Positions 14,640 through 31,022 of a stretch of DNA of 59,632 bases are shown here, piece after piece. The DNA lies in the IMG/VR virus record IMGVR_UViG_3300046501_000385, one strand, 5' to 3'. Position numbers and translations under genes: made by a program. The first letter of the stretch is position 1. Every line of letters begins with the position of its first letter. Origin of the DNA: a virus. The notes beneath the pieces are model-generated. The model saw nothing but the letters and a program-made list of their open reading frames with translations, was not told the DNA's origin and did not search any database.

Positions 14640-14689
14640 TGTGGGGACCCTTAATTTGTGCAACCAATAAATTACAAGTCGAAAAAAAC

Positions 14690-14716
14690 GTTAGTTACTC
14701 GACCGTAGTTAGTTAC
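14690..14716. promoter_or_regulatory. Direct repeat GTTAGTTAC x2 in a divergent promoter region
   Basis: Copies at 14690..14698 and 14708..14716, 18 bp start to start, between the 14283..14639 (-) and 14730..15059 (+) genes. Confidence 0.35.
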
Positions 14717-14729
14717 CCGGTCAGGGGGA

Positions 14730-15059
14730 ATGCCGGAAATGCCAGACAGTGCTTGTATCACGCGTAGAACGCTTCTTTCGGCAGTGCCTCCAGCGGGATT
14801 AGCCCTTTTAGCTCCAACAAAAGCCTCCGCCACTTGTACGCCCGAACCCGTGATCGGATTACTTCGGCAGCATACGATGTCGCTGGAAAACGACACGGAC
14901 GAGTGGAAGGAGATAGAGCGGGAAGTCTCGTCGTCTCCGCCAAGTATTTTGACACGCGAAGGCGCGCTCGAGTGTCTGCGGAGTGCGTTGCGGGTCGACG
15001 GGATGGGCAAGTTTGAAAATGCCCTCGTCACTGCCGCGCTGAAATATTTCCAGGCATAA
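14730..15059 (+). CDS. Small exported protein with a twin-arginine-like signal
   Basis: 109 aa. ITRRTLLSAVPPAGLALLAPTKASA resembles a Tat signal. SD agggg upstream. Confidence 0.45.
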   Translation: MPEMPDSACITRRTLLSAVPPAGLALLAPTKASATCTPEPVIGLLRQHTMSLENDTDEWKEIEREVSSSPPSILTREGALECLRSALRVDGMGKFENALVTAALKYFQA

Positions 15060-15347
15060 TTAAAAGCACTGACCGTTGACGCAGGTCGTCGACCAGTTTC
15101 GGCCTCGGCTGTCTCGACCATATTGAAACGTCGTATCCCCGTGGTCGTAAGTCTCTTGCGACCAGTTGGACCCTGTTCGCGCGTTGGTGCCCTGCATTTG
15201 CGTGGTGTTTCCGTAGCGCTGGATCGTATACGAATTGCCGCTCGTGCCGTCGTAGCATGTCGCAAACGTTTGCGTTCCGACGCAGGATGCGGAAGCAGCG
15301 CCTGCCCATGCCGCGATAAGTGTTGCAGCGGCGATCGATTTCAACAT
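15060..15347 (-). CDS. Small secreted Cys-containing G/N/T/Q-rich protein
   Basis: Start MLKSIAAATLIAAWAGAASA (Sec signal) with ggggagaag SD. The mature part has 4 Cys. Confidence 0.5.
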   Translation of the reverse strand: MLKSIAAATLIAAWAGAASASCVGTQTFATCYDGTSGNSYTIQRYGNTTQMQGTNARTGSNWSQETYDHGDTTFQYGRDSRGRNWSTTCVNGQCF

Positions 15348-15406
15348 CTTCTCCCCTTTCACGTTTTGGGGAGAAGATGCTTGTTTCCGCAACGGTTGTA
15401 AAGCGG

Positions 15407-18140
15407 TCACCGATACACGGGGTCAGCCAAGCTCTCTCGCAGGCGAAGGCTGAGGATCTTGTTGCGGATCAGGACGCCATCCTCCCGTTTTGCCGAATTG
15501 CTGGCCCGGGTTTTCAGCGATCGTTGCAGGGTGTCCTTCGTGATTGCCACCCCACCATGTACCGGCGCCGCGTTGAACTTCTCGATCGCCTTCACGGCAT
15601 CATCGATCGCACCATCATCCTGTGACATGGCTGCCATCGCGAACTTGTTGACCAGGCGCTGACGCTCGTCGAGCACGCGCCGCTCCGCGTTCTTCAATGC
15701 CGTGTTACGGTCCCACGTCTCCGCGACCCTTGCCGGGTTGAAGCCGAGCGCTTGCGCAACGATGTCATGATAGCCCATCTCATCGGCCGGCAGCACCTGA
15801 TCCCCGCCGATGGTCGCCAGCCCTTCGCTGGCGTAGCGGTAGGATTTCATCAGGTCGCGAATCGCCTTGGGCGCCATCATCTCAATGCCACGGGCAACAT
15901 CGCCGTCATAGATCAGGCTGCCACCGGTGTAGAGCGTCTCCCCGAGCCCCGCAGTCGCGCCGAGCGTCTGCGTGAGCCAGTATTGGTACTCGTCCTTGCC
16001 CTGCAGGTCGCGAGACGGAGAACGGAACCACAAGTCCGGCATGCCGATCCGGCTCGAAAGATCAATGCCGAGGTAGTGACCTGGCACACCATTCAACACT
16101 ACGCCACCGAGCTCGGGCCCGAGGATATCAATGACGTTGGCCTTAAACTGCGTTTCGAAATCCATTGGATCGTCATCGTCGCCGAACACCATACCGGCGA
16201 GCCCCATCAGCAGATGGAAGCCAACGGTGCCCGAGACGCCCGCCATCAGCGACATCATGCCGACGACGCCGGCGAGTTGATAGCGCGCCTCCTTGCGCGC
16301 CTGGGCGGTTTCACCCTTCATGGATTGCTGAACATCCCGGAACAGCCGATAGAGCATGTTGATGTTGTGCTGGCGGAAGACGAGAGCGACCTTGGCAAGG
16401 TCGTTCTGCAACACGGCAGGCCGGGAGGAGTTCGCATAGTCAAAGTGCGTCTTCCACGTCAGATCGTGCGCGGTGTCGATCGCCGCCGACATCGTTTCGC
16501 CTGCGTCACGCGCCATGCGATAGGCCGCCAGCGCCGTCACTTCTCGGTTCCAGACCTCGGCACGGTGGAACGCCCAGGAGATAACACCCATCACCCGGGC
16601 CCGCAGCGGCGTGTACTCCACACCGGTCTCGCCGACGCCTGCAAGATCGTGGCTCTGCGTCCGGTCGATCAGGCCCGATTCATAGAAGGCCTTGATCGCT
16701 GCCTTTTCGTCCTTCGAGAGGTTGCCGTTGACGATCGAGCCGCGGCCTCTGACCGTATCCATGGACGCCTGCGCGAGCGCCGCGCCTGCCTTGGCGAAGC
16801 TGCCGAACTTCGCCGACAGGATCGGCAGGCCGAGCATAACAGTCTGCGTCATGTTGACGGCGGCAGCGGCCGGTGAGGCTGCGAGGAACCACACAAAGGC
16901 AGTGCTCGTCATGGTCTGCGCGACCTTGCTGCCGGTCGGGTTCATCACCCACTCATGGCGCTTCGACAGCTCGTTGGCGAGCGTAACGCCACGGGTCTGA
17001 TCGTCGCTCTCCTTTGCCTGATCCATGGCCTGACCGGTGAGCTCCTGCAACTCAAGCCCGTACTTCAGCCGCGCGATCTGGTGGGCGCTGTGGAACATGT
17101 GCGACGAGAACACCCGCAACGCGTCGCCGGTGAAGCCTGCGGTGCCCTGGCGATGGATGAAACGCTTGCGAGCCGAAAGGTCCGGCATGCTTTCCAGATA
17201 GCGCTGCCAGATCTGATCCATGATGTCGTTGCCGACGCCTGCGCCACCGAGAATTTCTTCGATCTCGGCAACAATGCGCGGATCCATGGCTTTGCGAAGA
17301 TCGCTCCCCGCCTCCATCACACCCACCTCGACCTTGGCGCCGCCAGCACCACGGCTCAGCTCCGCCGCAAAACGGTCACGGGCCGCGGCCGTCTCGAACT
17401 TCGAGAAACTCAAAACCCTGCCGTCAATATCGCGCTGGGTGACGAAATACCGTCCGAAGCGGCCAAGCGGGAAATAGGGCTCTTCGACGCGGCTTGCCTC
17501 GAACGCGATGCGCATCTTCGTCAGCCGGGCCTTCGCCGCCCACGTGGCCTTCGTCGTCTCCGCCTTGTGTGCACTTGCTGCATCTTCTTCGGCATTGCGC
17601 CGATCGATGCCCGTCAGTCCACTGTCCCTGATTTTCTCCATGGTCTTGCGATAGCGAGCCTCGGCGCGATCGTGGGCGATCTGCTGGGCCTTCCTCACAT
17701 TATCGAGAAGGATATCGTCGAGCTCGAGCGCCTGTTTCTTGTAGGCGTCGCGGACACTCCGATAGAGCTGCCTGCCCTTCTCCGGCATCGCCATATACTG
17801 CTTCCGTAGCAGCTCATATCCGGGCTTTTTCGTGGTCTCCTCGTCAGTCTTGCTCGGATCGACGCCAGCAAGCGTGCTGTTGTGCATCAGGTTCGCCAAT
17901 TCCTGGGCCCGGCTCTTGTCCTTGCCGAGGAAACCGAGGCGGGCATATTTCAGCCACTCCCCGGCGATCTCGTCGGCGGCGGCATGCTTCGTGCCACGGT
18001 AGGCGTCCATGAGGCGCTTGACGCGGAGGTAGTCTCCGACAGCGGTCATGTTCGGCCGGGCGAGTTCCGTGAAATAGTTCAGCGGGACCGTCTTCAGGAG
18101 TGTCGGCTGGATGTCGATGAGCTTACCATTGAGCTCCTTG
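15407..18140 (-). other. C-terminal module: PLxRFG motif region plus hydrophobic membrane-insertion segments
   Basis: EPYFPLGRFGRYF at 17453..17470. Long hydrophobic stretches FVWFLAASPAAAAVNMTQTVMLGLPIL (about 16803..16905) and LAGVVGMMSLMAGVSGTVGFHLLMGLAGMVFG (about 16182..16283). Confidence 0.55.
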
Positions 18141-21100
18141 ACGACGCGCGTTTCGGTTACGCGCTTTCGCCCTTCGACTTTTCCTGAATCATCTGGCGTG
18201 CTTGCTTCAGAAAGACCTGTCGCTGCGGATCGTGGGCCGGCCACTTGCTGATCGACTGAGCCCAATCCTTCCATGCCTGCAACGTGTCGAACGGCGTTGG
18301 AGGATCGATTAGTCCCTGGACTGCTTGGATCTGGTTTTCCATTTTTGAAGAATGCCCTCGCGAGTTTCAGAGCGGCTTCGTCAATTTTCCGATCAAGCCC
18401 CGGAACAATTGACGGGTTATAAGGCCTGCTCGTTGAAAAGTCGATGATGCCGGCTCGGTTAGCCACAATCGCTGCAAAGTGATGGAATGCCTCTTTGGCC
18501 TGTGCTTCGGTGATACGGCGCTCCTTCACGAGGTTGGCGAGATAGGGCTCGACCTCATAGGAAATCGTCGCAAGATTGTTCGAGAAGGTGAGGCTGTCCC
18601 GCGTGATATTCGGGCTGGCAGAAAGATAGTCCCTTGCCGCGGATGTCATGCCACCAACGGTATCGTAGCCATTATGCCCGAGCGCGTAGATCTGGTGCAC
18701 GCCGGGGTAAACGGTCGCGGCGATGTCCTGGGCGCTAAGCGGCGTGTCGGCCGGATGATTATGATAGAGCACCAGGCTGCGATCCGGGTTCGCCATTGCC
18801 GAGGCGAGCTTGTTGCTCATGCCGGTGTAGCGTGGATCGCCGGCCGTACCGAACTCAATCGTCGAACCGTCATCGTCAATCGCAACGAGATACTCGTGAC
18901 CGCTCGATCGGCCATTCTCCATGACAATGCGGCGGGCCCAATCGGCGTAGCTCTCGCCCTCGCCACGCTCCGGAGCCTGCGCCTCCTTGAACCGGCCGTC
19001 GCCACGAACAACTGGATCGGGGCGCTTTGCCACGGCAGCGTTTGCAGCACCCTTCTGCTTTGGCTTCAGTGCATCGAGAATACGGCGATGGCGCGCAGAT
19101 GTGTCTGTGAGCTCTTCGGCGTGCTTCCACGGGCCGAGTTGCTTTTCAAGCGCCGGGATCTGCCCCCTCGCCTCTGTCGCGCGATCGCGGTCCAACTGGG
19201 GCACCGTCGAGAGCTTCTTGACGGTGTTGATCACGCGCATGCCGAGACCGGTCGCGTCAACGTCGGCAGCATCCTGGACGTGCACCTGATAGTCACGATC
19301 GCCAGATACCGTGACTTCGAACGCCCGATCATACTGGTGCTCGATCGACAGCGTGAAATCGCCATACTTACCGAGTTCCGTGTCGCCGGCGTGGTCGATC
19401 AGCTCCTTGCGCATGGCCGCGGCTATTGCGGCACCGAATTCCTTCGGCTTATCGAAGCTCTGACCGCCGATCGTCGCCTCAAATGGCTTGTCGGCAATCG
19501 CCTCCGCCCGCTCCGCATCCTTCTGCACGGAGATCGAGCGCGCTTCGATCTCGTCGGCCTCCTGCTTGAGCGACCTGATCTTGCCCTTGATACGGTGCTG
19601 TTCGCGATCGTGCTCGACCGATTGGCCTTCAAGCTGGCGGAGCTTACGGCGGGTTTCCATCTCTTCGAGAATGAGAGGATTGCCGGAGGCCGCAGCCTTC
19701 ATCTCGGCCGCGTTCGCTGCCTCGCCGGCGATGTCCTCGATCTCGCGGGTTTTCAGATTGCCCTTGCGGACCTGCTGGATAAACCGAGCCTTCGCCTCGA
19801 TGCCCTGCCACTGGCGCGCATCGAGGGTGTTCTTCGTCGCGTAGCGAAGGATTTCGATTTCGAAGTTGTCCGGATCCTGTCCATAGAGCTCATTGCCCTG
19901 GCGGATACCACGGCCGTCGCGCTGTTCGAGGTCGGACGGACGCCACGGCGCATCGAGGTGATGGAGCGCAACGAGACGGTTCTGAACGTTGGTGCCGGCG
20001 CCCATCTTCGGCGTTGAACCGAGAAGGACTCGGACGCGGCCTGATCGGACCTTTCCGAACAGTTCTTCCTTCTGCGCCTCGGTGTTGGCGTCGTGGATGA
20101 AGGCGATCTCATCGGCAGGGATGCCGCGGGAAATCAGCTTCTCGCGAAGATCATCGTAGACCGAGAACGTGCTCTGCAGCGCGAGGAAGTCATCGGGCGA
20201 CATGTTGTCGAGCTTTTCCTGCGCCGCCTCGTCGCCCTCGTCTGCCTTCTGGATCAGGGCACGGAGCTCCGCCTCTTCACGGGCGCGAGCCTTCTTCGGC
20301 GTCGAGAGGTCGATGAACACCAGCTGCGTGCCGCGGTCCCCGCTCCAGCGATCGTAGATGCGCTTGATGTTGTCGGCGGAGACATGGACCTTCGAGCCCG
20401 GATGATCCGAATAAGCGGGATCGATCAGGCGCATGTCGAGCGCCGCCTTGCGGGCATCCGACATAACCTTCAGCATGTTATCGGCGCCCTTCTCCGCCTT
20501 CTTCGGCAGATTTTCGGCGCGGTGCACGAGGGAGCCCTTCGGGAACTCGAGGTTACCGTTTTCGTCTGCCTTGCCCTCGCCAATGAAGGCTGCCTGATCT
20601 GGCGAGCGTTCGACGGTGATGTTCGTCGGCTTGCCGCCCTTCACCTTCGGCAGCGGCAGCTTCTTGCCGATCGCAGCCAGCTGCGCCTTGATGTCGTCGT
20701 TGGTGATGACGTCGGCGAAGCTGAGATAGCGCTGCATCAGCTCGGGCATGTTCACGAACTTGGCGAACCGGCTGTTGAGCTTGTACTGACCGCTCGGCGA
20801 GAGCTCCCAATCGCTGACTACCTCGCCGAACACTCTTGCCCAGGCATCGAAATGCGCGACACCGAGATTGCGCAGCGCCTTCTCGTCGAGGTACCGCTGA
20901 ACGGTGAACATCTCGGCCATGGTGTTGCTGAGCGGCGTTCCGGTGAGAAACGCCACGTTATTGCCGCCGGTCTTTTCGAGGATGAACCGGCTCTTCATAT
21001 AAAGGTCGGACGCCTTCTGGCTGCCCGCCTGATTGCCGAGACCGGCAACGCGGTTCATGGATGTGGCGAAAGCGAGGTTTTTGAACTCATGCGCCTCGTC

Positions 21101-24100
21101 GACATAGAGGGCGTCAACGCCGAGCTCGTCGAACGTGAGGCCATCGTCCTTCTTGCCGGCATCCAGCAGCCGTTCCATCTTGGCCTTGAGGTTGTCGCGC
21201 CATTTGGTGAGCTGGGCGACGTTCCGCGACTTCTCGCCGGTGTTACGCCGCAGCTCCCCGATGGACTGTTCGAGATCATCCATCTGTTGCTGGATGAATC
21301 GGCTTTCGTAGTTCGGGTCGATCCCGATCTTGCCGAAAGAGGAGTGGGCGACAATGACGGCGTCCCAGTCACCGGTGGCGACGCGGGCAAATAGCCGCTT
21401 GCGGTTATCCTTCTCGAAATCCTTTTTCGTGGCGGCCAAAACTTTCGCGCCCGGATAGAGGCGAACGAAATCCGCCGCCCACTGCCCAACGAGATGGTTC
21501 GGTACGACAAACATGGGCTTGCGTGCCTGGCCGATGCGGCGCTTTTCCATCGCCGACGCGATTGCGGCGAAGGTTTTACCCGCGCCCACGGTATGGTCGG
21601 CCAATGCCGTTCCGGATTGCAGCGACCGCCATACGAAGTTCTTCTGATGCGGCCGGAAGGAAATGATGTCGTCACCAACCTTGCCCGGCAGCGTGAGGTG
21701 CCCGCCGTCAAAGCTTCGCATGACGTCGGTGTTGAAGGTGTCGTTGTAGAGCCGCGCCAGCTCATCGCGGCGGGCGTCATTATCCCACAACCAACGGCGC
21801 CATTCCGCCTTTACGCGCTCCGCCTTCTCGTTCGCTGCTTCGGTTGCCGGCTGATTGAGGACCGTCGTGCCGTCGTTCATCCGGTCTGAGATCGTGATGG
21901 ACTGACCGTTCATCACCGCACTGAGGACGGTGTCAACGCTGGCGCGATCGGTGCCCCATTGTGTCTGAGCCGCCGAAGCGGGCGACGGAACGTCGAGCAC
22001 CCACTTGGCATTCGCTGCGGAATAGTAGGCCTTCGGCTTCACTGAGGACTGAGCAACATGCTTGATGAAGTCCTCGATGTGCTTCGCCGGCACCCAGGGT
22101 GAACCGGGCTTAACATCGATGTCGATCGCCTCGATATCGGCCGGCTGCACGTCACGCAGAGCGTTGATGTTCCGGCGGAAGTCCGAATCCTGCTCGGCGG
22201 CGCGCTCCGCCTCGGCGAGCTTTTGCTTCACATTACCGGAGAGATAGGCGTCCGCCGTCTCATATGCGCCCGACGGGGTTTTATAGAGAAGTGGGCCAAG
22301 CTCGCTGACAATCGCGTCCGAGGGCTTGCCGTAGAGCCGAGACATTGCGTCCAGATCAACCCGGCCAAGATCATTAAGGATGGTCGCGAGAGCGTCCTTG
22401 GCACTGCTGGCCGACGTCGGGCGGCGGTACGGCTGCTGGGTTCGCTTCGAGAAGATCGCTGCTTTTTGCGCCGATGCTGGCGTTGCCTTCTCGCCGGTCG
22501 CCTTCGCAACGGTAGCGCTGATACCCTTATCGAAACCCTGCTCCAGTGCCGAAATTTGGGGCCAAGTGGGATCATCGCGAAACAGCCGCTTGTTGGCGTC
22601 CGCATTGATCGGGCCGTGTTTCTTGACGAACCCGTCGTAGAGAGTGTTGAGCCGGTTGCGGAGGTTCTCGATCTGCTGGTCGGTAGCCTTCTCGTCAATC
22701 TGCGCACGACGCAGCCGGGCGAAGGCGTCACGCACGCGCACCATGCCCGACACACGTTCCTTTGCCGTCTCATTCGGGAAAGCAACGGCAGCAGACTGCG
22801 CTTGCCCGATTGAATCGGAAAGGCGCTGGTGGATGGTTCCATCCGGAGCCGCAAACATCGAGCCAACCTGCACGTCGTTGACCGTCTCCGGCACTGACAC
22901 GGTCTCTGTGGCAACGTGACCGGGCTCCACCATGATGTTTTCGGGAAGGCTGCGGATAGCCTTCGCGAGCTCGGCCGGCGTGTCCTGGCCCCCACGCGCG
23001 ATCAGCGCTGGCTCATCTGGCCCATACATCGAGCCGAACGCGCCGAACTCGCCGAGCATCATCTCGGGATGCGCAACGAAGTAGTCATTGAGCGGGACCA
23101 CGTTACCGTCACGCCCGCGATAGTCGGACACACCAAGCCATTGGCTCGACGATGGTGCCTCGCCGGCAAGGCGTTTGCGGAGAATGACGATATCCGTGGT
23201 TACCTCGGTACCTGCATTCTTGAGGAACGCGTTATTCGGCAGGCGAATTGCCGCGACGAGATCGGCCTGTTTCGCGATGAGGTTTCGCGCCGCGGCTGAC
23301 TGACCATCGAGGAAGCGGTTGGTGACAACCATCGCCAACACGCCACCCGGGCGCAGAGCGTCGACACTCTTTGCGAAGAAGAAATTATGAATAGACAGCT
23401 TGTTTAGGTGACGACGGTCCTTGTCGTATACCTTTTCGCTGCCGAAAGGCGGGTTGCCGATCGCTAGATCGAAATAGCTATCAGGCACCGAGAGCTTTTC
23501 GAAGCCCATCGGGGTCTGGATGTTGGCGCTGGGATAGAGGTTCTTCGCGATACCGCCGGTAACGCGATCGAGCTCGACGCCAGTCACCTTTGCCGCGTTC
23601 CGGACATCCCCCGGCATCAGGCCGAGGAAGTTGCCAGCGCCCACCGACGGTTCGAGCACCTGCCCGCCCTTGAAACCAAGCTTCCGTGCAATGTCCCAAA
23701 TCGCAGACACGACTTCGGCCGCGGTGTAGTGCGCGTTGCGCGTCGAGGATTCGGCGGCGCTGTATTCCTCCGGTGAAAGCAGGCCCTTCAATTCGGCCGC
23801 CTGCTTCTCCCATCCCTTGGCAACAGAACCATCTTCGCGGGCGAATGCCTGGCGTAATCCGCCCCAGCCTACCCACTTTGCAAGCACTGCCTGTTCGTCA
23901 CGGGTTGCCGGGCGCTTCTCTTCGTCGAGGGTGCGCAGTAGCCTGATCGCAGCGACGTTGCCAGCAAACTTGGCCTTCTGACCGCCCTCGCCGAGGTTGT
24001 CGTCGGCAGACAACGTGTAGTCAACTGCGCGCTGCTGTGCCGGCACCGCGGCGGATTGGACATCGCGCAACTGATCCGATATATTCTCATCTGTTCGCGG

Positions 24101-27100
24101 CGGGGCCGACGCAGGCCGGTCACCCCACAAAGCGCTGAGACGGCGTGAACTTTTCTCAGAGCGCCGCGAACCATTTTCAAAAGCAGTCAGCAGCCATGTT
24201 TTCGCGGTGCCGTCATAGTCGAGACGCACACCGGCATTGCCGCTCTCGTCACTGAGCTGGATGCGACGAGTGGTGCTGCGATCCTTGTCAACGTGAAGAC
24301 GATCGATGAAACCTTGGAGATTGCCGAGCACTTCCGGGTGCCATGCAATCAGCTTGGCGAGGCCAGCTCCGTTGCTCGCGTTCGTGCCGGCATTCCCCCA
24401 AACGAGATCGATGGGCCCTACGTCTGGATGCGAGAGAGCGCCGATCGCGTCGCCGGTCTGGCGGCGCTCGAGCTCTAGCGCTGCTTCCCGCCACTTGCCT
24501 TCGTAGCCGCGAAGAATCGGGCCGAACGGACCCTGCTCTAGATTTTCATCGACCGCTGGCCGCTTGCTGCGGCTTTCGCCATCTGATGCGTCAGTTCGCT
24601 TTTCGGAGCGGGTGTCGCGGTCTCTTCCGGCAGCAAGAGATAGTTCTCCCTGCTCATCTGCCACGCCTCGTCCGGACTGTACCCGCTCTCCTCGAGCTGG
24701 CTTGTCTCGCGATACGTCTGCTCGGCCGCGTCCGTCAGCGCCTGGTCGAGTTTCCCGGCTGCTTTCAGCTCCCGGTACTTCGTCGGCAGGTGTTCCTTCC
24801 AGTGCTGGCGACCCAGCTCGATCCAGTTCTGCAGGTTCACTCTCGTCTCCCGTGATCGTGGCGACATCGATGCCGTCCACCTCGGTCGCGCTCGACATGT
24901 CGGCGAAGGCTGACGCGCGCGGATCGTACTTTACACCCATATACCACGATTTCAGATACGGGCGCGCTGCCTCGCCTAGATCGACGAGCATGGCATTGGC
25001 ATAAGCCGCGAAAGTGCGGGCGCCCCTCTCGATGTGGTAACCGGCGAGCGTAATGCCAGCCTGCATAAGCTCAGGATCGATACCAGAGTTGATCTGGTTA
25101 AGCTTCTTGCGAAGAAGCGCGCGGGCCTTTTCAGCCGCATCGAGCGTGAAAATCTTGTTGACGGACACGGCCGGCTTTGACTTCGGCTGTGCGGCCGGCG
25201 TGGCCTGATCGACAATCTGGATGATGTCGGGGTTCAGGATCTCGTAGACCTGATATGTACCGGTTCCGCTAGCATAGGTCAGGACGTCATAGCCGCGCTC
25301 GCGAGCCTCTTCCCGGAAAAAGGCCTGGCGCTGATCCATATCGAACCCCGGCCGTTTGCCAGACGCATTTAGCACTTCGTCGAACGCCGGTGGTCGGTCG
25401 CTCAGTGACTTGCGGTCAAGGATCTTCGCAGACGTCGGGATCTTGATCGCCAACGTTTCGTTGCCAGTCGTTCCACCATATGATTCCGCCGTCCTACGAT
25501 CGGTCGTGAACATGATGCCCTTGTGGGTCGGGCGGAATTCGTATTCGCCGGCCTTGATCGCCGCGATTTCGGCTTTGCTCGCGCCGCGCCAAAGGTCGAT
25601 CTCGGGTGCGTCGGCGGATACGATCTGCGGCGGCCCGGATTGTGCGCGTTCCTGCTGCGGGGCCTGTTCTTCCCGTGTCGGAGCCGCGGGTTTCTCCCTG
25701 ACCTCGAACCGCTTCCCGTTCTCGACGACTTCGTGCGAGCTCCCGAGCGACTGCTTGGCAATATAGGCGTCCGCCTTCTCGCGCGAGCCGAACCACTTCG
25801 GCGCGAACGGCTGATCAGTCTTGCCCGACTTCAGCCACTGCTTGAAATCATCCATCGTGGTTGCGGAGATGTCGCCAAGGCCTTTCCAGCCGGCGGTGTA
25901 GTTTTCGAGGTAGGCCTTGCGCGCCGCCTCCTCGGTATCGAAACCGAGCATCACCTTGTGCTCGTCGAAACGGCCGTTCTCGCTCTTCTGGTCAACAACA
26001 AACACCGGCGCGCTGTCGTCGAGCTCGCTCACACCAGGGCGAACGAAGGTATCGATATGATCCTTGTCGCGGCCAATGGTCCCGCGGATGTAGCCATAGT
26101 GGCTCTTCATCTTGACGGACCATGGCTTGCCGCTGGCGTCGGTGCCCTTGCGTTCAGAGCCTTCGGGGTTCTCTACTGAGATATCGAGGCCGCCGAGCTT
26201 GAGCCTGCCAACCTTGTAGTTTCCGGCTTCCTTCTGAGCCTGCGTCGGCTCGGGCAAATCGTTCTTGGGAGAGGTTGCCGCCTCATGCGCAGATGAATCG
26301 TCCGCGCCGTCTGTCCTCTGTCCTTGGACAGCGGACGCAGACATTTCGGTGATGGCGTTGCCAGCGTGCATGCGGCTGTAGGCTTCGTAGCCGTTGACAT
26401 CGGAGGCCGGTTGCCAAAGCTCCAGCGGGAAGCGGCCAACGGCTGGCTGATCGTGCACTGGAACGTCGCGTCCGTCCGGCATCACGCCCCAGCGGTTCTG
26501 TGCTTCGTTCCATGTCAGCAGCGACGCCTTGCCATCCTTGATGATGACGCGCGAGCCTTTCGAGCCGATACCGCTCATGCCTGCTGTGCTGAGAACGGAC
26601 GCGTTCGCATCGACGTAAACCGTCTTCGCGGTGCGCGGCTTCAGGCCGCTATCACCCTCGTGCCCCGGATCGTTCCTCGCCGCCTTGGTGCGAACCGTGG
26701 TTCCGTCCTGGTGGACCTCGTACACACTGCCCTTGGCCGTGGTGAAGCGGGACACGACACCAGCCGGCATATCCGGAACCGCGGTGACATCGGCGGGCGT
26801 CGTCTTAGGCGTCTCCGGCGTCCGAACCGCCTCGAGCTTCTTCCTGATCGCGGGCGTGAAACCAGCCCACTTCGATTTCTCGCTACGCTTGATGCCGGTC
26901 TCTGCGAGGACACGCTTGCGCCCGAGATCATCGAGCGTCAGGTCCCACCAGTCGGCAAAGCTATCGCCCTGCTCTGTGGTTTCCGGCGCAGCGCTGGCGG
27001 CGCTCTCCTCGTTCTTGCGATCACGCTGCCACTGGCGCAGCCGCGTGTCGTTGACCGGATGCATATGCACCGGCAACGTGGATCGGGCTTCCTTCGCCGC

Positions 27101-30100
27101 GCGGTCGACACGATAGCGGTAATCATCGGCCATCGAGGTGATGGCAGTCGGCGAGACATTGAAGGCATCGGCAAGACGCTTCACCTCGGCGGCACTTACC
27201 CGTTCAAGGTCTGTGTGAGCTTCCCTGCCCAACTTCTTCGCAATAAAGCGAGATTTCGCGAGGTCGAACAACGCGGCGTGGTTCTCGTCGGGAAGTACGA
27301 CTGTCTTTCCGATAACCTTTCGGCTGTTTGGACCGGCGTCACCAATCTCGCGTTCGATCGGTGGATTTCGTTCAAGATCCTGCTTCTCGATCTGCTTTGG
27401 GGTAAGCTTATCGACATAGAGGCGGTCAACAGGAACCTGCAGCACCTCGCCGTCGTCGGTCGTGACAACGGTTTCGGTGTCGCCTTCCTCATAGCTCTCG
27501 ACCTTTGCAGCGAAGCGCCCTACCCGCGCATCATCGACGATGACGCGCTGACCAGGCGACGGGCGCCCGCGAAGACGTTCCGTCGCCGCCTGCATATCCT
27601 TCTGAGCGGGAAGCGGCTCGCTCTTGATCTCGCTGGCAACCGGTGCCTGCGGTTCAAGCGCTGGGTCTTTCGAAAATTCGGGAATGCTATCATTGATCGG
27701 AACCGGTCCTTTCTCGATCGGGTTTTCCCGATTGAGCTGTTCCGGCGATTTGGCAATCTGGCTGATGCTCGCGATCGGAACCTGATACACTTCGCCGCTG
27801 CCGCCATCGATGACGACGGCCTCATCGCCCTCGTAGCTGTCTACGCGCGCCATGAACGGGTCGATGCCCTCATGATCAACGCGGACCGTCGCGCCGACTG
27901 AGGGACGGTTGGCCTGCTCCCGCTCGATGTCAGCAGATGCCGTTTTCAGCAACCCGTCGATGTGATCGTTGGCGGTCTTTCCGCTCCGCCCGAGGTCCAG
28001 CAGCCAATCCGGCATGGTATCGTCGGCCAGTCGCTGCTGCTGTCGGCCTGCGATCTGCTCCTCGGCGTGCTGCACCGAGCGCCCGATCGGGCCCTTGGGC
28101 TGAGGCGCGGCCTCGGGTGCCGGTGCTGCTACGGCAGGCGCCGCCGCGGAATGTTCGGGGGAGGCTGGGCGGAACGCGCCGCCTGCGCCGCCCATGCCTG
28201 CACCCATGGCACCGCCAGCCGCGACACCGGATGCAACCGCCTCCCCCACGCCTTCCGTCAGAGACTGGTTTGGATCAGCCTTCTGAACGGCCGCGTTTTC
28301 CGCAATCGTCTGTGCCGCGCCCTGCGGCGCTTCTTCGAGCAAGCCTTCGCCCACGAAACCACGGGTGGCTCCGGCGACGATGCGCTTGACGATGCCGCCA
28401 CCGACACCTTCGGCAATAATCTTGGCGAGCGCCCGATCGCCCATACCGCCAAACATGCCGGTGGCAACACCTGCTGTGAGGAACGCCTGGGAGGCAGCGT
28501 CCTCGGAAAGAGCCTTGATGGCCTCGTCTTCCGACATGCCACCCTGTACCATCGCCCGAACGGCTTCAGTCTTCGCCAGCTGCTCGCGCGGCAGTTTCCC
28601 GATCTTGTCACGAACGTTGCGAGCGGAATCGGCTCCGCCCATGGTGCCTTCGGTAATGGCACCTGCGAGTGTGGCCGTTCTGGCAGCAGTCGCGGCTGCC
28701 GCGCGTTCCGTAGCGCCAGCCGCAAGAGCACGCAGATATGCCCCACGCGCCAACACGCCGCCTGGCAACATCGTGACGACGGTACCGGGAGCGCTTTCAC
28801 CGACGGTGCGGAGATAGCTGCGAGGATCGCGCCACGCTGGGCCGAAGGTATGCTTCTTATCGTCCCACCAGTTCTTGGCGTCGGCGTCCTGCTGGCGCTC
28901 TGTCACGCTGGCATTCGCCCGCTGCTGGGAATCGGCCATCTTTTGGTCGATGGTCTTGCCCATCACCCAACGGTCGATGTCGTCGGACGCCTTCAGGAAG
29001 TCGTCGCCGCCTGGCAGCTTCCGAAATAGCGTGTCGGCCAACGAGGATAGCGACTGCCCAACTCCGATCGTACCGGATTTCAGGATGCGGGCTGTGTCGC
29101 CGCCAATGCCGCCGGAGCGGTTATCGGCTTCCCACTGTTTCTGCCAGTTCGGAAGCTCGCTCTCGTCGATCGCGACGTAGCGGCCCGGGTTCTCCGCCTC
29201 GAGCTGCTGCTGCCGATCGGTCACTCCGACGTTGTGCTGCTCGGTGAAGGCACCCATCCGGTTCTGTTCAGCCTGGGCGCTGGCGTCCGCCTGCCGCTGA
29301 TCGGCAGCCGCCACCTGCGTATCCACCGTCTGCTGGATTGGGTTGCCCTCGGGATAAAGCCCCATCGGATCTTTGACCGCGAAGTGAGCATTGGCAACAA
29401 TCGTTGGCGCTTCTGACTTTGGTGAGCTGGGCGCCTCAGCGTCATGACCGTCACGAGCGTCCGCCGTCTCGATATGCCAGTTCTCGTTCTTGAGCGGGAA
29501 GCGCATGCCATACTTCCCGGCATTCGCGTGCACCCAATCGACGACTTCCTTCGGCGCCGATGAAAATTCGCCTCCGTTCCAGCCGAGATCGGCAGCATCG
29601 CCGTGTTGATGCCGCGATCCACCTGGGGCGCCGATGTTCGCCGACATGCCGGTCTGCTTGAAAATCGGCTTCCACTTCTGACCGGCCTCAACTGGGCCCA
29701 TGGCGTCGACGTCAGCCAGCCACGCCTTGCGGTCGATCCCGTACTTACCGGCGTTCTCCGCGATGATCTGCGCCTGCCGCTCCGGAGAGCGCGCACCAGA
29801 AAGGATGTCGAGGCCGGATTTCACGAAATCCGGTGCATCGTTGAACATCGCAGTGAGGCCAGACTGAAGGCCCGGCTTCATGTTGCTGACGTACTCGGCG
29901 GGCTTGCCTGGCTGAAGCTTGCTCAGCAGCATGGAGCTGTCGGCGCTACCGTCCTTCGGCTGTTCCGCCTTCTTCGGGTTCAGGATTGCCTCGAACGGAT
30001 CGACGACGCTGCCATCGAGGCCGGGTGCAAAGGCTGTCTTGGCGGAAGGCTTGCTCTGCCCGGGCTGACCGGACTTGTAGAAGACGTGGCGACCGCGTTT

Positions 30101-30565
30101 TGTCGTCTCCTGCATCGAGCTCGCCCAATCTGGCATGACAGAATCGGCGTGATAGTGATCGGCACCTCCAGTCTCATCAGGGAGTGCGCCGGAGAAGACA
30201 CCATCGATGATGGCCTCGGCGCGCTGGCGCAGGACTGGATCCTGCTGGGCGCGCTTGGCAGCCTCGCCCGGGGCCTCATAACCGGTGAACTGTCTTTTCT
30301 GGCGCACAACGTCGCCGGGGCTGATGCCTCTCTCAGAAGAGCGGTTGCGAATAACGGACGCAACGTCGGCCATGCCGGCGTCACCCTCGCCCGCAGCTTC
30401 AGCAATCACCGTGTTGACGAGATCGCTTCTGTCCGCATCGCTGAACGACGGGCGCGTGGATGCGCTCGCCTCACTGGTCTTTGGAGCTTCGGGGGCTTTG
30501 CCGCCGTAGAGATTGAGGGGGTCTTTCCAGCTATCATCTCGGCCGAGGCCAATCACCAGAGGCAT
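15407..30565 (-). CDS. Giant polyvalent virion/ejection-type protein (about 5,050 aa)
   Basis: Uninterrupted 15.2-kb ORF. ATG 30565 has GGAG 7 nt upstream (the track start 30592 is GTG). Multiple catalytic motifs are listed as separate domain features. Confidence 0.85.
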   Translation of the reverse strand: MPLVIGLGRDDSWKDPLNLYGGKAPEAPKTSEASASTRPSFSDADRSDLVNTVIAEAAGEGDAGMADVASVIRNRSSERGISPGDVVRQKRQFTGYEAPGEAAKRAQQDPVLRQRAEAIIDGVFSGALPDETGGADHYHADSVMPDWASSMQETTKRGRHVFYKSGQPGQSKPSAKTAFAPGLDGSVVDPFEAILNPKKAEQPKDGSADSSMLLSKLQPGKPAEYVSNMKPGLQSGLTAMFNDAPDFVKSGLDILSGARSPERQAQIIAENAGKYGIDRKAWLADVDAMGPVEAGQKWKPIFKQTGMSANIGAPGGSRHQHGDAADLGWNGGEFSSAPKEVVDWVHANAGKYGMRFPLKNENWHIETADARDGHDAEAPSSPKSEAPTIVANAHFAVKDPMGLYPEGNPIQQTVDTQVAAADQRQADASAQAEQNRMGAFTEQHNVGVTDRQQQLEAENPGRYVAIDESELPNWQKQWEADNRSGGIGGDTARILKSGTIGVGQSLSSLADTLFRKLPGGDDFLKASDDIDRWVMGKTIDQKMADSQQRANASVTERQQDADAKNWWDDKKHTFGPAWRDPRSYLRTVGESAPGTVVTMLPGGVLARGAYLRALAAGATERAAAATAARTATLAGAITEGTMGGADSARNVRDKIGKLPREQLAKTEAVRAMVQGGMSEDEAIKALSEDAASQAFLTAGVATGMFGGMGDRALAKIIAEGVGGGIVKRIVAGATRGFVGEGLLEEAPQGAAQTIAENAAVQKADPNQSLTEGVGEAVASGVAAGGAMGAGMGGAGGAFRPASPEHSAAAPAVAAPAPEAAPQPKGPIGRSVQHAEEQIAGRQQQRLADDTMPDWLLDLGRSGKTANDHIDGLLKTASADIEREQANRPSVGATVRVDHEGIDPFMARVDSYEGDEAVVIDGGSGEVYQVPIASISQIAKSPEQLNRENPIEKGPVPINDSIPEFSKDPALEPQAPVASEIKSEPLPAQKDMQAATERLRGRPSPGQRVIVDDARVGRFAAKVESYEEGDTETVVTTDDGEVLQVPVDRLYVDKLTPKQIEKQDLERNPPIEREIGDAGPNSRKVIGKTVVLPDENHAALFDLAKSRFIAKKLGREAHTDLERVSAAEVKRLADAFNVSPTAITSMADDYRYRVDRAAKEARSTLPVHMHPVNDTRLRQWQRDRKNEESAASAAPETTEQGDSFADWWDLTLDDLGRKRVLAETGIKRSEKSKWAGFTPAIRKKLEAVRTPETPKTTPADVTAVPDMPAGVVSRFTTAKGSVYEVHQDGTTVRTKAARNDPGHEGDSGLKPRTAKTVYVDANASVLSTAGMSGIGSKGSRVIIKDGKASLLTWNEAQNRWGVMPDGRDVPVHDQPAVGRFPLELWQPASDVNGYEAYSRMHAGNAITEMSASAVQGQRTDGADDSSAHEAATSPKNDLPEPTQAQKEAGNYKVGRLKLGGLDISVENPEGSERKGTDASGKPWSVKMKSHYGYIRGTIGRDKDHIDTFVRPGVSELDDSAPVFVVDQKSENGRFDEHKVMLGFDTEEAARKAYLENYTAGWKGLGDISATTMDDFKQWLKSGKTDQPFAPKWFGSREKADAYIAKQSLGSSHEVVENGKRFEVREKPAAPTREEQAPQQERAQSGPPQIVSADAPEIDLWRGASKAEIAAIKAGEYEFRPTHKGIMFTTDRRTAESYGGTTGNETLAIKIPTSAKILDRKSLSDRPPAFDEVLNASGKRPGFDMDQRQAFFREEARERGYDVLTYASGTGTYQVYEILNPDIIQIVDQATPAAQPKSKPAVSVNKIFTLDAAEKARALLRKKLNQINSGIDPELMQAGITLAGYHIERGARTFAAYANAMLVDLGEAARPYLKSWYMGVKYDPRASAFADMSSATEVDGIDVATITGDESEPAELDRAGSPALEGTPADEVPGAESSRETRPGADGRGRADVSRDKPARGERVQSGRGVADEQGELSLAAGRDRDTRSEKRTDASDGESRSKRPAVDENLEQGPFGPILRGYEGKWREAALELERRQTGDAIGALSHPDVGPIDLVWGNAGTNASNGAGLAKLIAWHPEVLGNLQGFIDRLHVDKDRSTTRRIQLSDESGNAGVRLDYDGTAKTWLLTAFENGSRRSEKSSRRLSALWGDRPASAPPRTDENISDQLRDVQSAAVPAQQRAVDYTLSADDNLGEGGQKAKFAGNVAAIRLLRTLDEEKRPATRDEQAVLAKWVGWGGLRQAFAREDGSVAKGWEKQAAELKGLLSPEEYSAAESSTRNAHYTAAEVVSAIWDIARKLGFKGGQVLEPSVGAGNFLGLMPGDVRNAAKVTGVELDRVTGGIAKNLYPSANIQTPMGFEKLSVPDSYFDLAIGNPPFGSEKVYDKDRRHLNKLSIHNFFFAKSVDALRPGGVLAMVVTNRFLDGQSAAARNLIAKQADLVAAIRLPNNAFLKNAGTEVTTDIVILRKRLAGEAPSSSQWLGVSDYRGRDGNVVPLNDYFVAHPEMMLGEFGAFGSMYGPDEPALIARGGQDTPAELAKAIRSLPENIMVEPGHVATETVSVPETVNDVQVGSMFAAPDGTIHQRLSDSIGQAQSAAVAFPNETAKERVSGMVRVRDAFARLRRAQIDEKATDQQIENLRNRLNTLYDGFVKKHGPINADANKRLFRDDPTWPQISALEQGFDKGISATVAKATGEKATPASAQKAAIFSKRTQQPYRRPTSASSAKDALATILNDLGRVDLDAMSRLYGKPSDAIVSELGPLLYKTPSGAYETADAYLSGNVKQKLAEAERAAEQDSDFRRNINALRDVQPADIEAIDIDVKPGSPWVPAKHIEDFIKHVAQSSVKPKAYYSAANAKWVLDVPSPASAAQTQWGTDRASVDTVLSAVMNGQSITISDRMNDGTTVLNQPATEAANEKAERVKAEWRRWLWDNDARRDELARLYNDTFNTDVMRSFDGGHLTLPGKVGDDIISFRPHQKNFVWRSLQSGTALADHTVGAGKTFAAIASAMEKRRIGQARKPMFVVPNHLVGQWAADFVRLYPGAKVLAATKKDFEKDNRKRLFARVATGDWDAVIVAHSSFGKIGIDPNYESRFIQQQMDDLEQSIGELRRNTGEKSRNVAQLTKWRDNLKAKMERLLDAGKKDDGLTFDELGVDALYVDEAHEFKNLAFATSMNRVAGLGNQAGSQKASDLYMKSRFILEKTGGNNVAFLTGTPLSNTMAEMFTVQRYLDEKALRNLGVAHFDAWARVFGEVVSDWELSPSGQYKLNSRFAKFVNMPELMQRYLSFADVITNDDIKAQLAAIGKKLPLPKVKGGKPTNITVERSPDQAAFIGEGKADENGNLEFPKGSLVHRAENLPKKAEKGADNMLKVMSDARKAALDMRLIDPAYSDHPGSKVHVSADNIKRIYDRWSGDRGTQLVFIDLSTPKKARAREEAELRALIQKADEGDEAAQEKLDNMSPDDFLALQSTFSVYDDLREKLISRGIPADEIAFIHDANTEAQKEELFGKVRSGRVRVLLGSTPKMGAGTNVQNRLVALHHLDAPWRPSDLEQRDGRGIRQGNELYGQDPDNFEIEILRYATKNTLDARQWQGIEAKARFIQQVRKGNLKTREIEDIAGEAANAAEMKAAASGNPLILEEMETRRKLRQLEGQSVEHDREQHRIKGKIRSLKQEADEIEARSISVQKDAERAEAIADKPFEATIGGQSFDKPKEFGAAIAAAMRKELIDHAGDTELGKYGDFTLSIEHQYDRAFEVTVSGDRDYQVHVQDAADVDATGLGMRVINTVKKLSTVPQLDRDRATEARGQIPALEKQLGPWKHAEELTDTSARHRRILDALKPKQKGAANAAVAKRPDPVVRGDGRFKEAQAPERGEGESYADWARRIVMENGRSSGHEYLVAIDDDGSTIEFGTAGDPRYTGMSNKLASAMANPDRSLVLYHNHPADTPLSAQDIAATVYPGVHQIYALGHNGYDTVGGMTSAARDYLSASPNITRDSLTFSNNLATISYEVEPYLANLVKERRITEAQAKEAFHHFAAIVANRAGIIDFSTSRPYNPSIVPGLDRKIDEAALKLARAFFKNGKPDPSSPGTNRSSNAVRHVAGMEGLGSVDQQVAGPRSAATGLSEASTPDDSGKVEGRKRVTETRVVKELNGKLIDIQPTLLKTVPLNYFTELARPNMTAVGDYLRVKRLMDAYRGTKHAAADEIAGEWLKYARLGFLGKDKSRAQELANLMHNSTLAGVDPSKTDEETTKKPGYELLRKQYMAMPEKGRQLYRSVRDAYKKQALELDDILLDNVRKAQQIAHDRAEARYRKTMEKIRDSGLTGIDRRNAEEDAASAHKAETTKATWAAKARLTKMRIAFEASRVEEPYFPLGRFGRYFVTQRDIDGRVLSFSKFETAAARDRFAAELSRGAGGAKVEVGVMEAGSDLRKAMDPRIVAEIEEILGGAGVGNDIMDQIWQRYLESMPDLSARKRFIHRQGTAGFTGDALRVFSSHMFHSAHQIARLKYGLELQELTGQAMDQAKESDDQTRGVTLANELSKRHEWVMNPTGSKVAQTMTSTAFVWFLAASPAAAAVNMTQTVMLGLPILSAKFGSFAKAGAALAQASMDTVRGRGSIVNGNLSKDEKAAIKAFYESGLIDRTQSHDLAGVGETGVEYTPLRARVMGVISWAFHRAEVWNREVTALAAYRMARDAGETMSAAIDTAHDLTWKTHFDYANSSRPAVLQNDLAKVALVFRQHNINMLYRLFRDVQQSMKGETAQARKEARYQLAGVVGMMSLMAGVSGTVGFHLLMGLAGMVFGDDDDPMDFETQFKANVIDILGPELGGVVLNGVPGHYLGIDLSSRIGMPDLWFRSPSRDLQGKDEYQYWLTQTLGATAGLGETLYTGGSLIYDGDVARGIEMMAPKAIRDLMKSYRYASEGLATIGGDQVLPADEMGYHDIVAQALGFNPARVAETWDRNTALKNAERRVLDERQRLVNKFAMAAMSQDDGAIDDAVKAIEKFNAAPVHGGVAITKDTLQRSLKTRASNSAKREDGVLIRNKILSLRLRESLADPVYR
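18650..18901 (-). other. Domain: JAB/MPN (RadC-like) metallopeptidase motif
   Basis: GHEYLV ... LYHNHPADTPLSAQD approximates E...HxHx(6-7)Sx2D (aa 3898-3981). Confidence 0.5.
19880..21660 (-). other. Domain: SNF2/DEAD-like superfamily-2 helicase (N and C lobes)
   Basis: FRPHQ, VGAGKTF (Walker A, aa 3002), YVDEAHEFKN (DEAH, aa 3165), LTGTPLSN, GAGTNVQ...HHLDAPWRPSDLEQRDGRGIRQGN. Confidence 0.8.
23185..23745 (-). other. Domain: N6-adenine DNA methyltransferase
   Basis: Motif I VLEPSVGAGNF and motif IV DLAIGNPPFG (NPPF at aa 2380-2383), preceded by a WVGWGG helical region. Confidence 0.8.
25190..25620 (-). other. Domain: candidate ADP-ribosyltransferase-like R-(S/T)-E module (tentative)
   Basis: LWRGAS (R1669), IMFTTD (T1696/T1697) and QVYEIL (E1784) are spaced like the R-STS-E triad. 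Confidence 0.3.
25823..26224 (-). other. Domain: inorganic-pyrophosphatase-like module (tentative)
   Basis: GNYKVGRLKLGGLDISVENPEGSERKG...WSVKMKSHYGYIRGTIGRDKDHIDTFV resembles the InPase module I recall from polyvalent phage proteins. Confidence 0.4.
27404..27898 (-). repeat. Two tandem copies of a roughly 50-aa beta-rich (SH3/Tudor-like) module within the giant protein
   Basis: VGATVRVDHEGIDPFMARVDSYEGDEAVVIDGGSGEVYQVPIASI (aa 899-947) aligns with PGQRVIVDDARVGRFAAKVESYEEGDTETVVTTDDGEVLQVPVDRL (aa 1013-1063). Confidence 0.6.
29465..29875 (-). other. Domain: peptidase M15 (VanY / D-Ala-D-Ala carboxypeptidase-like)
   Basis: SGARSPERQ ... GGSRHQHGDAADL ... NENWHIE: the three zinc-ligand and catalytic motifs in canonical order (aa 240-376). 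Confidence 0.7.
30077..30430 (-). other. Domain: SleB-type cell-wall hydrolase (Hydrolase_2-like)
   Basis: LVNTVIAEAAGEGDAGMADVASVIRNRSSERG...VVRQKRQFTGYE...HYHAD (aa 55-172 of the 5061-codon ORF). Confidence 0.7.
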
Positions 30566-30615
30566 GCGCGGGCTCCATCGTAGAAGCCGCACTCATGCGC
30601 GGTAAATGACACCTG

Positions 30616-30644
30616 TTTATATGCGGTAGGAAGACTTTTTGGAA
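30616..30644 (-). promoter_or_regulatory. Candidate sigma70-type promoter of the giant gene
   Basis: On the minus strand, TTCCAA-N17-TATAAA about 50 nt upstream of ATG 30565. Confidence 0.35.
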
Positions 30645-30731
30645 GCGGCGATTGGCACGTGTCAGGACTGGAAAACGCCCTATGGGAAACATAAATCTCG
30701 CATACCTGAATTACGGTTTCGAAGGTTCCGG

Positions 30732-31022
30732 ATGGACTACCACCCGAAATACAAATGGAAGCCTACGTGGCCGGGTGAAACCGGCCTCGATGGGAAACTA
30801 CTACAGGATTTCCTCGGTCTCGACGGTACCGTGCCAGTTGGTCGAATTCGCCTGGAAGAAGCGGGGCCGATGAAAGGCAAGTGGCAGTGGAACGGCCATG
30901 GCCCGATGAAGGTCAAGCGGCACCTACCTCATCAGGGCTATGTCGCCACAGCCAGAGAAGCCTCTCGCATGGCCGAGGACTATTATGATCGGCTGCTCGA
31001 GCACAACGGGATTAAGCGCTGA
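30732..31022 (+). CDS. Hypothetical protein
   Basis: ATG 30732 (MDYHPKYKWKPTWPGE...) with gaagg SD. The track start 30639 is TTG and would overlap the divergent promoter. Confidence 0.45.
   Translation: MDYHPKYKWKPTWPGETGLDGKLLQDFLGLDGTVPVGRIRLEEAGPMKGKWQWNGHGPMKVKRHLPHQGYVATAREASRMAEDYYDRLLEHNGIKR

Follow-up and report, generated by a model that had tools for sequence, protein, structure and literature searches.

The virus record IMGVR_UViG_3300046501_000385 of IMG/VR, a stretch of 59,632 nucleotides (nt) hereafter called the window, carries on its minus strand a giant gene (15407..30592). We propose that the product of this gene is a DarB-like virion protein, a polyvalent protein of the phage type, which would be packaged and injected with the DNA of a temperate podophage resembling PBC5 and Atu_ph08, a reading to which we assign a probability of about 80%. 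Packaging and injection form the best-supported reading because a homolog of the giant is present in purified virions of phage JC1. Indeed, JC1 gp69, a DarB-like protein of 4515 amino acids (aa) whose gene takes up 22% of the genome, was detected by mass spectrometry in CsCl-purified virions with 51 unique peptides and the second highest score (PMC9144972). The InPase, LPD39, and PBECR1 polyvalent domains present in the giant also count in favor of a packaged effector. The first-pass annotation of the window had held that the protein is packaged and injected ahead of the DNA; packaging finds support in the JC1 virions and in the location of the gene among virion genes, and we infer the injection, the order of events, the anti-defense activity, and what the N- and C-terminal modules do.

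A single open frame with a DarB-like core

The giant gene is real and is one gene in one frame. As already read in the first-pass annotation, the frame runs uninterrupted for 5061 codons counted from a GTG, and we favor the ATG at codon 10 (nt 30565) as the likely true start, giving a product of 5052 aa, because a GGAG lies 7 nt upstream of it and because it aligns with residue 1 of Atu_ph08 gp21. Every motif string quoted in that annotation could be located in the translation, namely, EPSVGAGNF at aa 2314, NPPF at 2380, GAGKT at 3003, DEAH at 3165, QRDGRGIRQG at 3557, HNHP at 3944, and PLGRFG at 4375. The two ends of the window (1-127 and 59506-59632) are identical over 127 nt each, so that the record represents a complete circular assembly of 59,505 base pairs (bp), of which the giant gene accounts for 25.5%, in agreement with the share of about 25% claimed earlier. 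A tyrosine-integrase gene (58557-59630, continuing at 3-308) spans the circular junction, and its product is 55 to 66% identical to the integrases of Atu_ph08 and PBC5 across the N-terminal ∼355 residues, which supports the earlier claim of a temperate phage.

That the single open reading frame (ORF) would be an assembly or sequencing artifact fusing two or more real genes is extremely unlikely. The window looks like a circular short-read assembly whose ends overlap by 127 nt, and the RefSeq record of PBC5 has two coding sequences for the corresponding region, both of which would suit a fusion, but 5061 stop-free codons in DNA of 60% GC with a uniform codon bias, together with colinear single ORFs of 4841 to 4985 aa in four independently sequenced phages, argue against it. 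As for PBC5, tblastn shows the region of its two coding sequences (16949-24523 and 26155-32697) to be colinear apart from a single frame change at about nt 26,500, more likely an error in the PBC5 record, whose accession we take to be of the 2001 era. The PBC5 giant is thus probably one gene of ∼5,250 codons interrupted by a sequencing error, which would make it longer than that of the window.

The DarB-like core of the giant (aa ∼2180-3850, 19043..24055; this and all the following domains of the giant lie on the minus strand) comprises a methylase, a helicase, and conserved linker and coiled-coil regions, and it is the most conserved part of the protein among relatives. A predicted gamma-type N6-adenine methylase is located at aa ∼2290-2451, with Pfam Eco57I/MTS matches at aa 2311-2451, and a predicted SNF2/SF2 helicase at aa ∼2977-3612, with Pfam ResIII, SNF2-rel, and Helicase_C matches at aa 2977-3566, and the core matches PHROG 11801 and PHROG 10089. 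Four colinear high-scoring segment pairs (24 to 30% identity; best E, 6e-22) connect it to residues 91-1556 of P1 DarB, a protein of 2255 aa that has the same order, methylase then helicase, and is colinear with the giant. The Pfam profiles and the colinearity with P1 DarB therefore agree on the methylase and the helicase that the first-pass annotation had read from motifs, and together with PHROG 10089 they uphold its placement of the giant in the DarB-like polyvalent class. More generally, the tiled profile search that had been proposed with that annotation supported its SleB, M15, pyrophosphatase, methylase, and helicase calls. The giant is more than twice as long as P1 DarB, with added muralytic, delivery, and effector modules. 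According to literature cited in PMC9144972 and in the Atu_ph08 paper, P1 DarB is carried in the virion and shields the incoming DNA against type I restriction.

The polyvalent class was defined by Iyer, Burroughs, Anand, de Souza, and Aravind in 2017, along with the InPase, LPD39, PBECR, and ART modules (PMC5512222), and it is characterized by many (2 to 15) distinct effector domains in one polypeptide. The giant has at least 10 recognizable modules, with InPase, LPD39, and PBECR1 domains among them, and its gene is linked to virion genes. All six tiles of the protein match PHROG 10089 ("DarB-like antirestriction," 4647 positions), covering positions 171-4647 of the profile at E values that range between 1e-166 and 0. 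Sinorhizobium phage PBC5 and Agrobacterium phage Atu_ph08 stand nearest to it among the phages, their proteins being ∼72% identical over the final 3000 residues, and Atu_ph08 gp21 is colinear with the giant and 69% identical to it over aa 1441-5061. They are followed by Microcystis phage Mwe-JY07, Ochrobactrum phage POI1126, and the Erwinia phages PEp14, Pavtok, and Stean, then Klebsiella phages SopranoGao and LASTA and the Bcep22 group; in addition to JC1 gp69, the giants measure 4877 aa in Atu_ph08, 4985 aa in Mwe-JY07, 4841 aa in POI1126, and 4914 aa in PEp14.

Several of these proteins have been described before. In the Atu_ph08 paper, gp21 has a section of its own as a DarB-like protein with a hydrolase and a peptidase at its N terminus, a methylase gene of 14,526 bp was reported to be much larger than any other gene that POI1126 has (PMC5492332), and the giant of CSP3 is similar to that of JC1. 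Casjens and colleagues listed such giants as very large putative ejection proteins and named Pavtok gp27 (5007 aa) the longest phage protein known at that time (PMC8402733). The view of the first-pass annotation that no described case unites all these functions in one polypeptide is thus contradicted by Atu_ph08 gp21, by PHROG 10089, and by the equivalents in POI1126, PEp14, Pavtok, Mwe-JY07, and the Bcep22 group. Judged by its sequence, the giant adds a member to a published class whose relatives range from 4515 to 5007 aa.

Putative delivery modules and exchangeable cassettes

Regions conserved in all or nearly all relatives lie at aa ∼460-870, 1812-1891, 2180-3850, and 4130-5061 (the last except in JC1), and pairwise mapping places the variable regions at aa 1-460, 1258-1440, 1650-1800, 1900-2180, and 3860-4130. 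On the basis of these comparisons, the predicted architecture combines a scaffold for delivery and DarB functions with positions at which effectors are exchangeable. The giants of Atu_ph08 (gp21) and PBC5 occupy the same gene position as that of the window and share the order SleB, M15, N-module, repeats, InPase, PBECR1, methylase, helicase, JAB-like, LPD39, and PLxRFG. They are 69 to 72% identical to it over the C-terminal ∼3,100 to 3,600 residues but only 22 to 45% over the N-terminal 400 residues, and they have an unrelated sequence in place of the cassette at aa 1650-1800. Bcep22 gp75, JC1 gp69, the DC1 and CSP3 giants, and PEp14/Pavtok gp27 (4914 to 5007 aa) share the N-module, the domain at aa 1812-1891, and the methylase-helicase core; they represent ∼22% of the genome, are encoded at the end of the structural module, and have a lytic transglycosylase at the N terminus where the window's giant has SleB and M15. 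Their sets of cassettes also differ from that of the window's giant, and JC1 gp69 has no LPD39-PLxRFG end detectable by BLAST.

The wall-degrading domains called at the N terminus in the first-pass annotation are recovered as a SleB-type cell-wall hydrolase domain (aa 68-172, 30077..30391; Pfam Hydrolase_2, 2.2e-12), with weak PDB matches to the SleB structures 4fet and 4f55, and a VanY/M15-type D-Ala-D-Ala carboxypeptidase domain (aa 238-373, 29474..29881; Pfam VanY, 1.6e-7, above the cutoff) that contains the motifs SRHQHGDAADL and ENWHIE. The Gly/Ala-rich N-module (aa ∼460-870, 27983..29215) is conserved and, in the BLAST map, common to all DarB-like giants; tblastn finds it in 25 phage records, every one of them a DarB-like giant. 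A PHROG search links it to the N-terminal portion of the "virion RNA polymerase" profile, PHROG 2206 (E, 2.4e-16), and the module's part at aa ∼607-870 is homologous to residues ∼255-507 of N4 gp50, the virion RNA polymerase (vRNAP) of that phage. A hidden Markov model (HMM) built from giants only gives N4 gp50 a score of 51.8 bits with composition correction off, compared with a mean of 5.6 and a maximum of 25.3 in 999 composition-matched block shuffles (z, 13.7). With the composition correction of HMMER on, the score falls to 2.3 bits, and the link to N4 therefore rests on the shuffle test and on the PHROG 2206 match. We discounted a link to N4 gp50 that jackhmmer gave because it was circular. 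The N-terminal domain of N4 gp50 is flexible and has been implicated in injection and membrane association, and its helical C-terminal domain is needed for encapsidation (PMC13492108).

At the other end of the giant, an LPD39 domain (aa 4147-4331, 17600..18154; Pfam PF18858, 5.1e-62), possibly enzymatic according to Iyer et al. (PMC5512222), precedes the C-terminal PLxRFG ("tail-700") domain (aa 4372-5061, 15410..17479). The curated NCBIfam profile NF032893 for PLxRFG covers aa 4372-5046 with 874 bits, so that the PLGRFG motif noted in the first pass falls inside a curated domain. We found 97 homologs of this domain, and a model built from 65 sequences (predicted local distance difference test [pLDDT], 81; predicted template-modeling score [pTM], 0.70) is almost entirely helical. 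Searched against the PDB, the model has no significant neighbor (best E, 0.66); among predicted viral structures, the domain is found again at the C terminus of numerous polyvalent giants, and it weakly matches the "Internal virion protein D" of Roseobacter podophage CRP-4 (E, 2.7e-6; TMq, 0.37). The two long hydrophobic segments reported near the C terminus exist as uncharged stretches of 34 to 38 residues for which the model predicts helices (aa 4557-4594, nt 16811-16924, and aa 4771-4804, nt 16181-16282), but their hydropathy is only moderate. The PLxRFG domain may serve as an encapsidation signal, in membrane insertion, or in both.

Between these ends, the two tandem β-rich repeats of ∼60 aa noted previously are present (aa 896-958 and aa 1009-1072, 27377..27907), with a raw local alignment score of 103; self-BLAST at 1e-3 does not recover them, and their Pfam SH3-like matches are at chance level only. 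A variable cassette (aa 1258-1440, 26273..26821), with no Pfam match, is present in PBC5 and absent from Atu_ph08. The pyrophosphatase-like block turns out to be an InPase domain, an inorganic pyrophosphatase of the polyvalent-protein type (aa 1451-1588, 25829..26242; Pfam PF18823, 1.2e-57). Residues 1460-1597 match the InPase domain that ends the 765-aa portal protein in PDB 9b41 chain L (3e-29), and this structure is a direct example of an InPase module built into a virion component. A small domain (aa 1812-1891, 24920..25159) is conserved in all five relatives compared. Beyond the modules listed in the first-pass annotation, a borderline Pfam match points to a PBECR1 domain (aa 2054-2141, 24170..24433), which is predicted to be a barnase/EndoU/colicin-like RNase; it scores 24.9 bits in a large tile and 27.9 bits as an isolated segment, for a cutoff of 27.6, and the corresponding isolated segments score 28.1 in PBC5 and 27.3 in Atu_ph08. 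Long low-complexity charged linkers separate modules, for example, at aa 1900-2030.

The block in which an R-(S/T)-E motif had been read (aa 1650-1800, 25193..25645) is a cassette with a predicted ADP-ribosyltransferase (ART) fold. The motif is present, and it has no Pfam match even at an E value of 5; the cassette has no match in any deposited phage searched, and the unrelated sequence at this position of Atu_ph08 is ∼20% identical to it. Among 1.84 billion representative proteins searched exhaustively with HMMER, one was a real homolog: P0099, a metagenomic protein of 289 aa with 34% identity to the cassette and with a neighboring gene unrelated to the giant. Two further matches, P0098 and P0100, were rejected as repetitive proteins that score via summed weak repeats. 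A word-indexed protein database gave no homologs of this cassette or of the JAB-like one; all 97 matches of the PLxRFG search in that database were of at most 1189 aa, with giants present only as contig-truncated fragments, so that it apparently holds no very long proteins and absent matches there say little for giants.

The ART fold is supported by a two-sequence AlphaFold model of aa 1650-1800 (pLDDT, 77; pTM, 0.72), whose Foldseek neighbors in the PDB are almost all ART-fold proteins. The best is 6kyf (E, 2.8e-4; TM of about 0.5), confirmed to be AcrIF11 (PMC12421852), and the others include diphtheria toxin, exotoxin A, Tpt1/KptA, PARPs, and RES toxins. The model places these putative catalytic residues on strands where an ART triad (strands 1, 2, and 5) would be expected, with R1669 on strand 1, T1696/T1697 where strand 2 ends, and E1784 on one of the late strands, and all are kept in P0099 in the alignment of the two sequences. 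These R/T/E residues differ from the H-F-H-D of AcrIF11 (PMC12421852) and from the H-Y-D of ART-PolyVal (PF18760), ART being the commonest protein-modifying modules of polyvalent proteins (PMC5512222). Membership in ART-PolyVal was tried and rejected, hhalign having aligned the central motif only, with 3.7% probability. As judged by Pfam and hhalign, the cassette is thus not in a described ART sequence family.

The last cassette (aa 3861-4135, 18188..19012) is RadC/JAB-like, with a Glu (in GHEYL), H-N-H-P, Ser, and Asp. Homologs were found only in the giants of PBC5, Atu_ph08, and Ruegeria phage 45A6, and these residues are invariant in the four giants, at 33 to 43% identity. The HxH-to-S spacing is one residue shorter than in Escherichia coli YicR/YeeS; hhalign against YicR plus YeeS gave 68.7% probability (E, 4.5e-5) over 44 columns, in register through HNHP, for a reversed control of 0.6%. 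HMMER provided no link to Pfam or the PDB, where only chance matches to antibody chains appeared. The motif read by the first-pass annotation is thus present and invariant, but its profile support is moderate, and the RadC/JAB assignment is plausible but not settled. In the marine roseophage 45A6, the cassette is part of an unannotated hypothetical protein of 3912 aa (8524-20262), which indicates that it moves between otherwise different giants. The slot directly upstream of LPD39-PLxRFG, where the window's giant has this cassette, is exchangeable and holds ART-PolyVal, MuF_C, LPD3, or LPD37 in family members (proteins P0009, P0011, P0041, P0050, P0061, P0083, and P0087), with ART-PolyVal adjoining LPD39 on its upstream side.

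Proposed packaging and injection, and competing explanations

Our working model is that the giant would be made late together with the structural genes, and that a few copies would be packaged inside the capsid. At infection, the giant would pass through the portal and the short tail in an at least partly unfolded state, and the SleB hydrolase and the M15 peptidase would cut peptidoglycan. The N-module and the helical PLxRFG domain would serve delivery and/or encapsidation, and the central cargo would act on, or close to, the incoming DNA and the host: the DarB-type adenine methylase-helicase would protect the DNA from restriction, and the swappable cassettes (InPase, ART fold, PBECR1 RNase, RadC/JAB-like, and LPD39) would blunt other host responses.

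The capsid protein (gene at 2125-3249, plus strand; Pfam Phage_capsid_3) has its nearest relative in the T=9 capsid of Ralstonia phage GP4 (PDB 8h89; E, 6e-158), a Bcep22-like podovirus (PMC9698820), and the portal protein (gene at 35513-37798, minus strand) matches PDB 8jov (3e-233). The N4 gp56-like capsid proposed in the first-pass annotation did not hold at the family level, since N4 gp56 belongs to Phage_capsid_4, a different Pfam family, and BLAST finds no similarity between the two proteins. The window phage and N4 may nevertheless share the T=9 geometry, and a bulky internal protein could find space beside a genome of ∼60 kb in a T=9 shell. N4 gp50 (3500 aa) is also a giant virion protein of a T=9-type podophage, and both proteins combine a flexible N-terminal delivery domain, an enzymatic center, and a helical C-terminal domain, with homologous N-modules. 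They differ in cargo, which is an RNA polymerase in N4 gp50 and the methylase-helicase with effectors in the window's giant, and their C-terminal domains have no detectable similarity (the C-terminal tiles have no PHROG 2206 match).

Several points weigh against a packaged and injected anti-restriction protein. P1 DarB needs DarA, Hdf, DdrA, and Ulx for packaging; P1 is a myovirus with DarA, Hdf, DdrA, DdrB, and Ulx as partners, whereas the giant's phage is a podovirus, and tblastn (E ≤ 0.01) found no homolog of these five proteins in the window, so that packaging must work differently here. The DNA of POI1126 is cut by EcoRI and EcoRV as expected for unmethylated DNA (PMC5492332), a result that fits a methylase acting only transiently or at other sites. 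The uncharged C-terminal segments reach a Kyte-Doolittle peak of only 1.55, and since this value is moderate and the PLxRFG model has no significant neighbor among membrane proteins, membrane insertion is unproven. The whole giant contains no zincin motif (HExxH or HxxEH) and no Pfam MPTase match; the zincin MPTase is a frequent, though not universal, self-processing domain of polyvalent proteins (PMC5512222), and any processing must therefore differ from that of many of them. Finally, the giant of this phage is known from its sequence alone, and the enzymatic activities are predictions for all giants of the group.

The missing zincin bears on a tentative alternative, in which the giant would be a packaged precursor polyprotein, cut in the prohead or after ejection by its own JAB-like domain or by a host or prohead protease, so that the chain of 5,050 residues would never act as one unit. 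Iyer et al. argued that processing, usually by a zincin MPTase, is needed since the domains have different targets (PMC5512222), and the giant, devoid of HExxH, does have a conserved JAMM-type E/HxH/S..D constellation as well as long charged linkers between its modules; P1 DarA is, per its annotation, processed during head maturation. Yet the N4 vRNAP is an unprocessed protein of 3,500 residues (PMC13492108), Iyer et al. consider RadC-type JAB domains likelier to target nucleic acids than proteins (PMC5512222), and the JAB assignment itself is moderately supported. Moreover, the cassette is missing from POI1126, PEp14, Mwe-JY07, and JC1 and is therefore no general processing device for the family. 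A further conjecture, which we regard as improbable, is that aa 1650-1800 found a new, very rare family of active ARTs acting as a virion-delivered, AcrIF11-like counter-defense and that the RadC/JAB-like domain replaces the zincin as the device that releases modules; if so, an injected ART would disable a host defense or another early target once the DNA enters.

It is unlikely, as we see it, that the giant is above all a mechanical ejectosome that digests the wall, spans the envelope, and uses its SNF2 motor to pull DNA in, with anti-restriction and effectors as secondary functions. The muralytic N terminus, the N-module in common with the N4 injection domain, and the helical C terminus with its two long uncharged segments and its weak structural match to the CRP-4 protein would all suit such a machine, as would the retention of the gene across the whole phage group at the cost of a quarter of the genome. 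The phage further encodes a distinct internal virion protein (PHROG 511), so that an ejectosome context exists; however, this protein and other virion-associated proteins may already supply a conventional ejectosome, and the PLxRFG C terminus is not universal, as the JC1/Bcep22 giants have none that BLAST detects. Besides, the most conserved part of the giant is the core homologous to P1 DarB, which was reportedly found by Iida in 1987 to be dispensable for infecting non-restricting hosts. Far less probable still is an unpackaged giant, working late in the cytoplasm as an enzyme complex that modifies progeny DNA and aids lysis from within. Wall hydrolases and a DNA methylase could act inside the producing cell, and the evidence for packaging comes from relatives rather than from the window phage itself, but the homolog in purified JC1 virions, the position of the gene within the structural module, the separate lysis cassette of relatives, the N-module in common with the injected N4 vRNAP, and the InPase and LPD domains typical of packaged polyvalent proteins (PMC5512222) all speak for a virion protein.

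Gene surroundings and significance

The giant gene has portal and terminase genes on one side and genes for a tail fiber, an internal virion protein, and virion structural proteins on the other; when gene neighborhoods were compared, as suggested in the first-pass annotation, the same neighbors were found in Atu_ph08, PBC5, POI1126, and PEp14. A spacer of ∼1.8 kb (13596-15406) separates the virion structural genes from the stop codon of the giant gene; it has a lower GC content, is absent from Atu_ph08, and has no match in the phage collection. It contains two small minus-strand ORFs (13972-14184 and 14283-14663) that by eye resemble ribbon-helix-helix regulators, an orphan ORF of 197 aa (14672-15265, minus strand) with no PHROG or Pfam match, and, directly after the giant gene, a small minus-strand ORF (15060-15410, with a probable ATG near 15347) whose start by eye looks like a signal peptide. 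The spacer could be a moron island. A strong terminator-like plus-strand hairpin (13907-13938; 12 pairs, 8 of them G-C, followed by a T-rich tail) comes after the plus-strand virion structural genes and faces the end of the giant's transcription unit. One of these genes (11194-12363, plus strand) encodes a virion structural protein with a Peptidase_S74 "chaperone of endosialidase" domain (1e-10), and its product, which adjoins the spacer, is probably a self-cleaving tail fiber or spike. Upstream of the giant gene, a crude gene caller based on codon usage accepts no ORF in the ∼760 bp at 30593-31353, where no match to a sigma-70-like promoter appears either. A single tRNA-Met gene (CAT; 34187-34263, minus strand) lies inside the packaging/head gene block.

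Giants of this kind occupy a quarter of a small phage genome and therefore must pay their way. Knowledge of the class is unchanged by the present member, which adds a full-length sequence and a clearer module map, with conserved delivery and DarB cores alternating with swappable effector slots. New points are the tie of the N-module to the injection domain of the N4 virion RNA polymerase, a RadC/JAB-like cassette inside a phage-type giant, a rare cassette of predicted ART fold with its one real homolog among 1.84 billion representatives, and a widespread PLxRFG domain that has no solved structural relative. The module map is useful for virion proteomics, cryo-electron microscopy, and anti-defense screens in this phage group.

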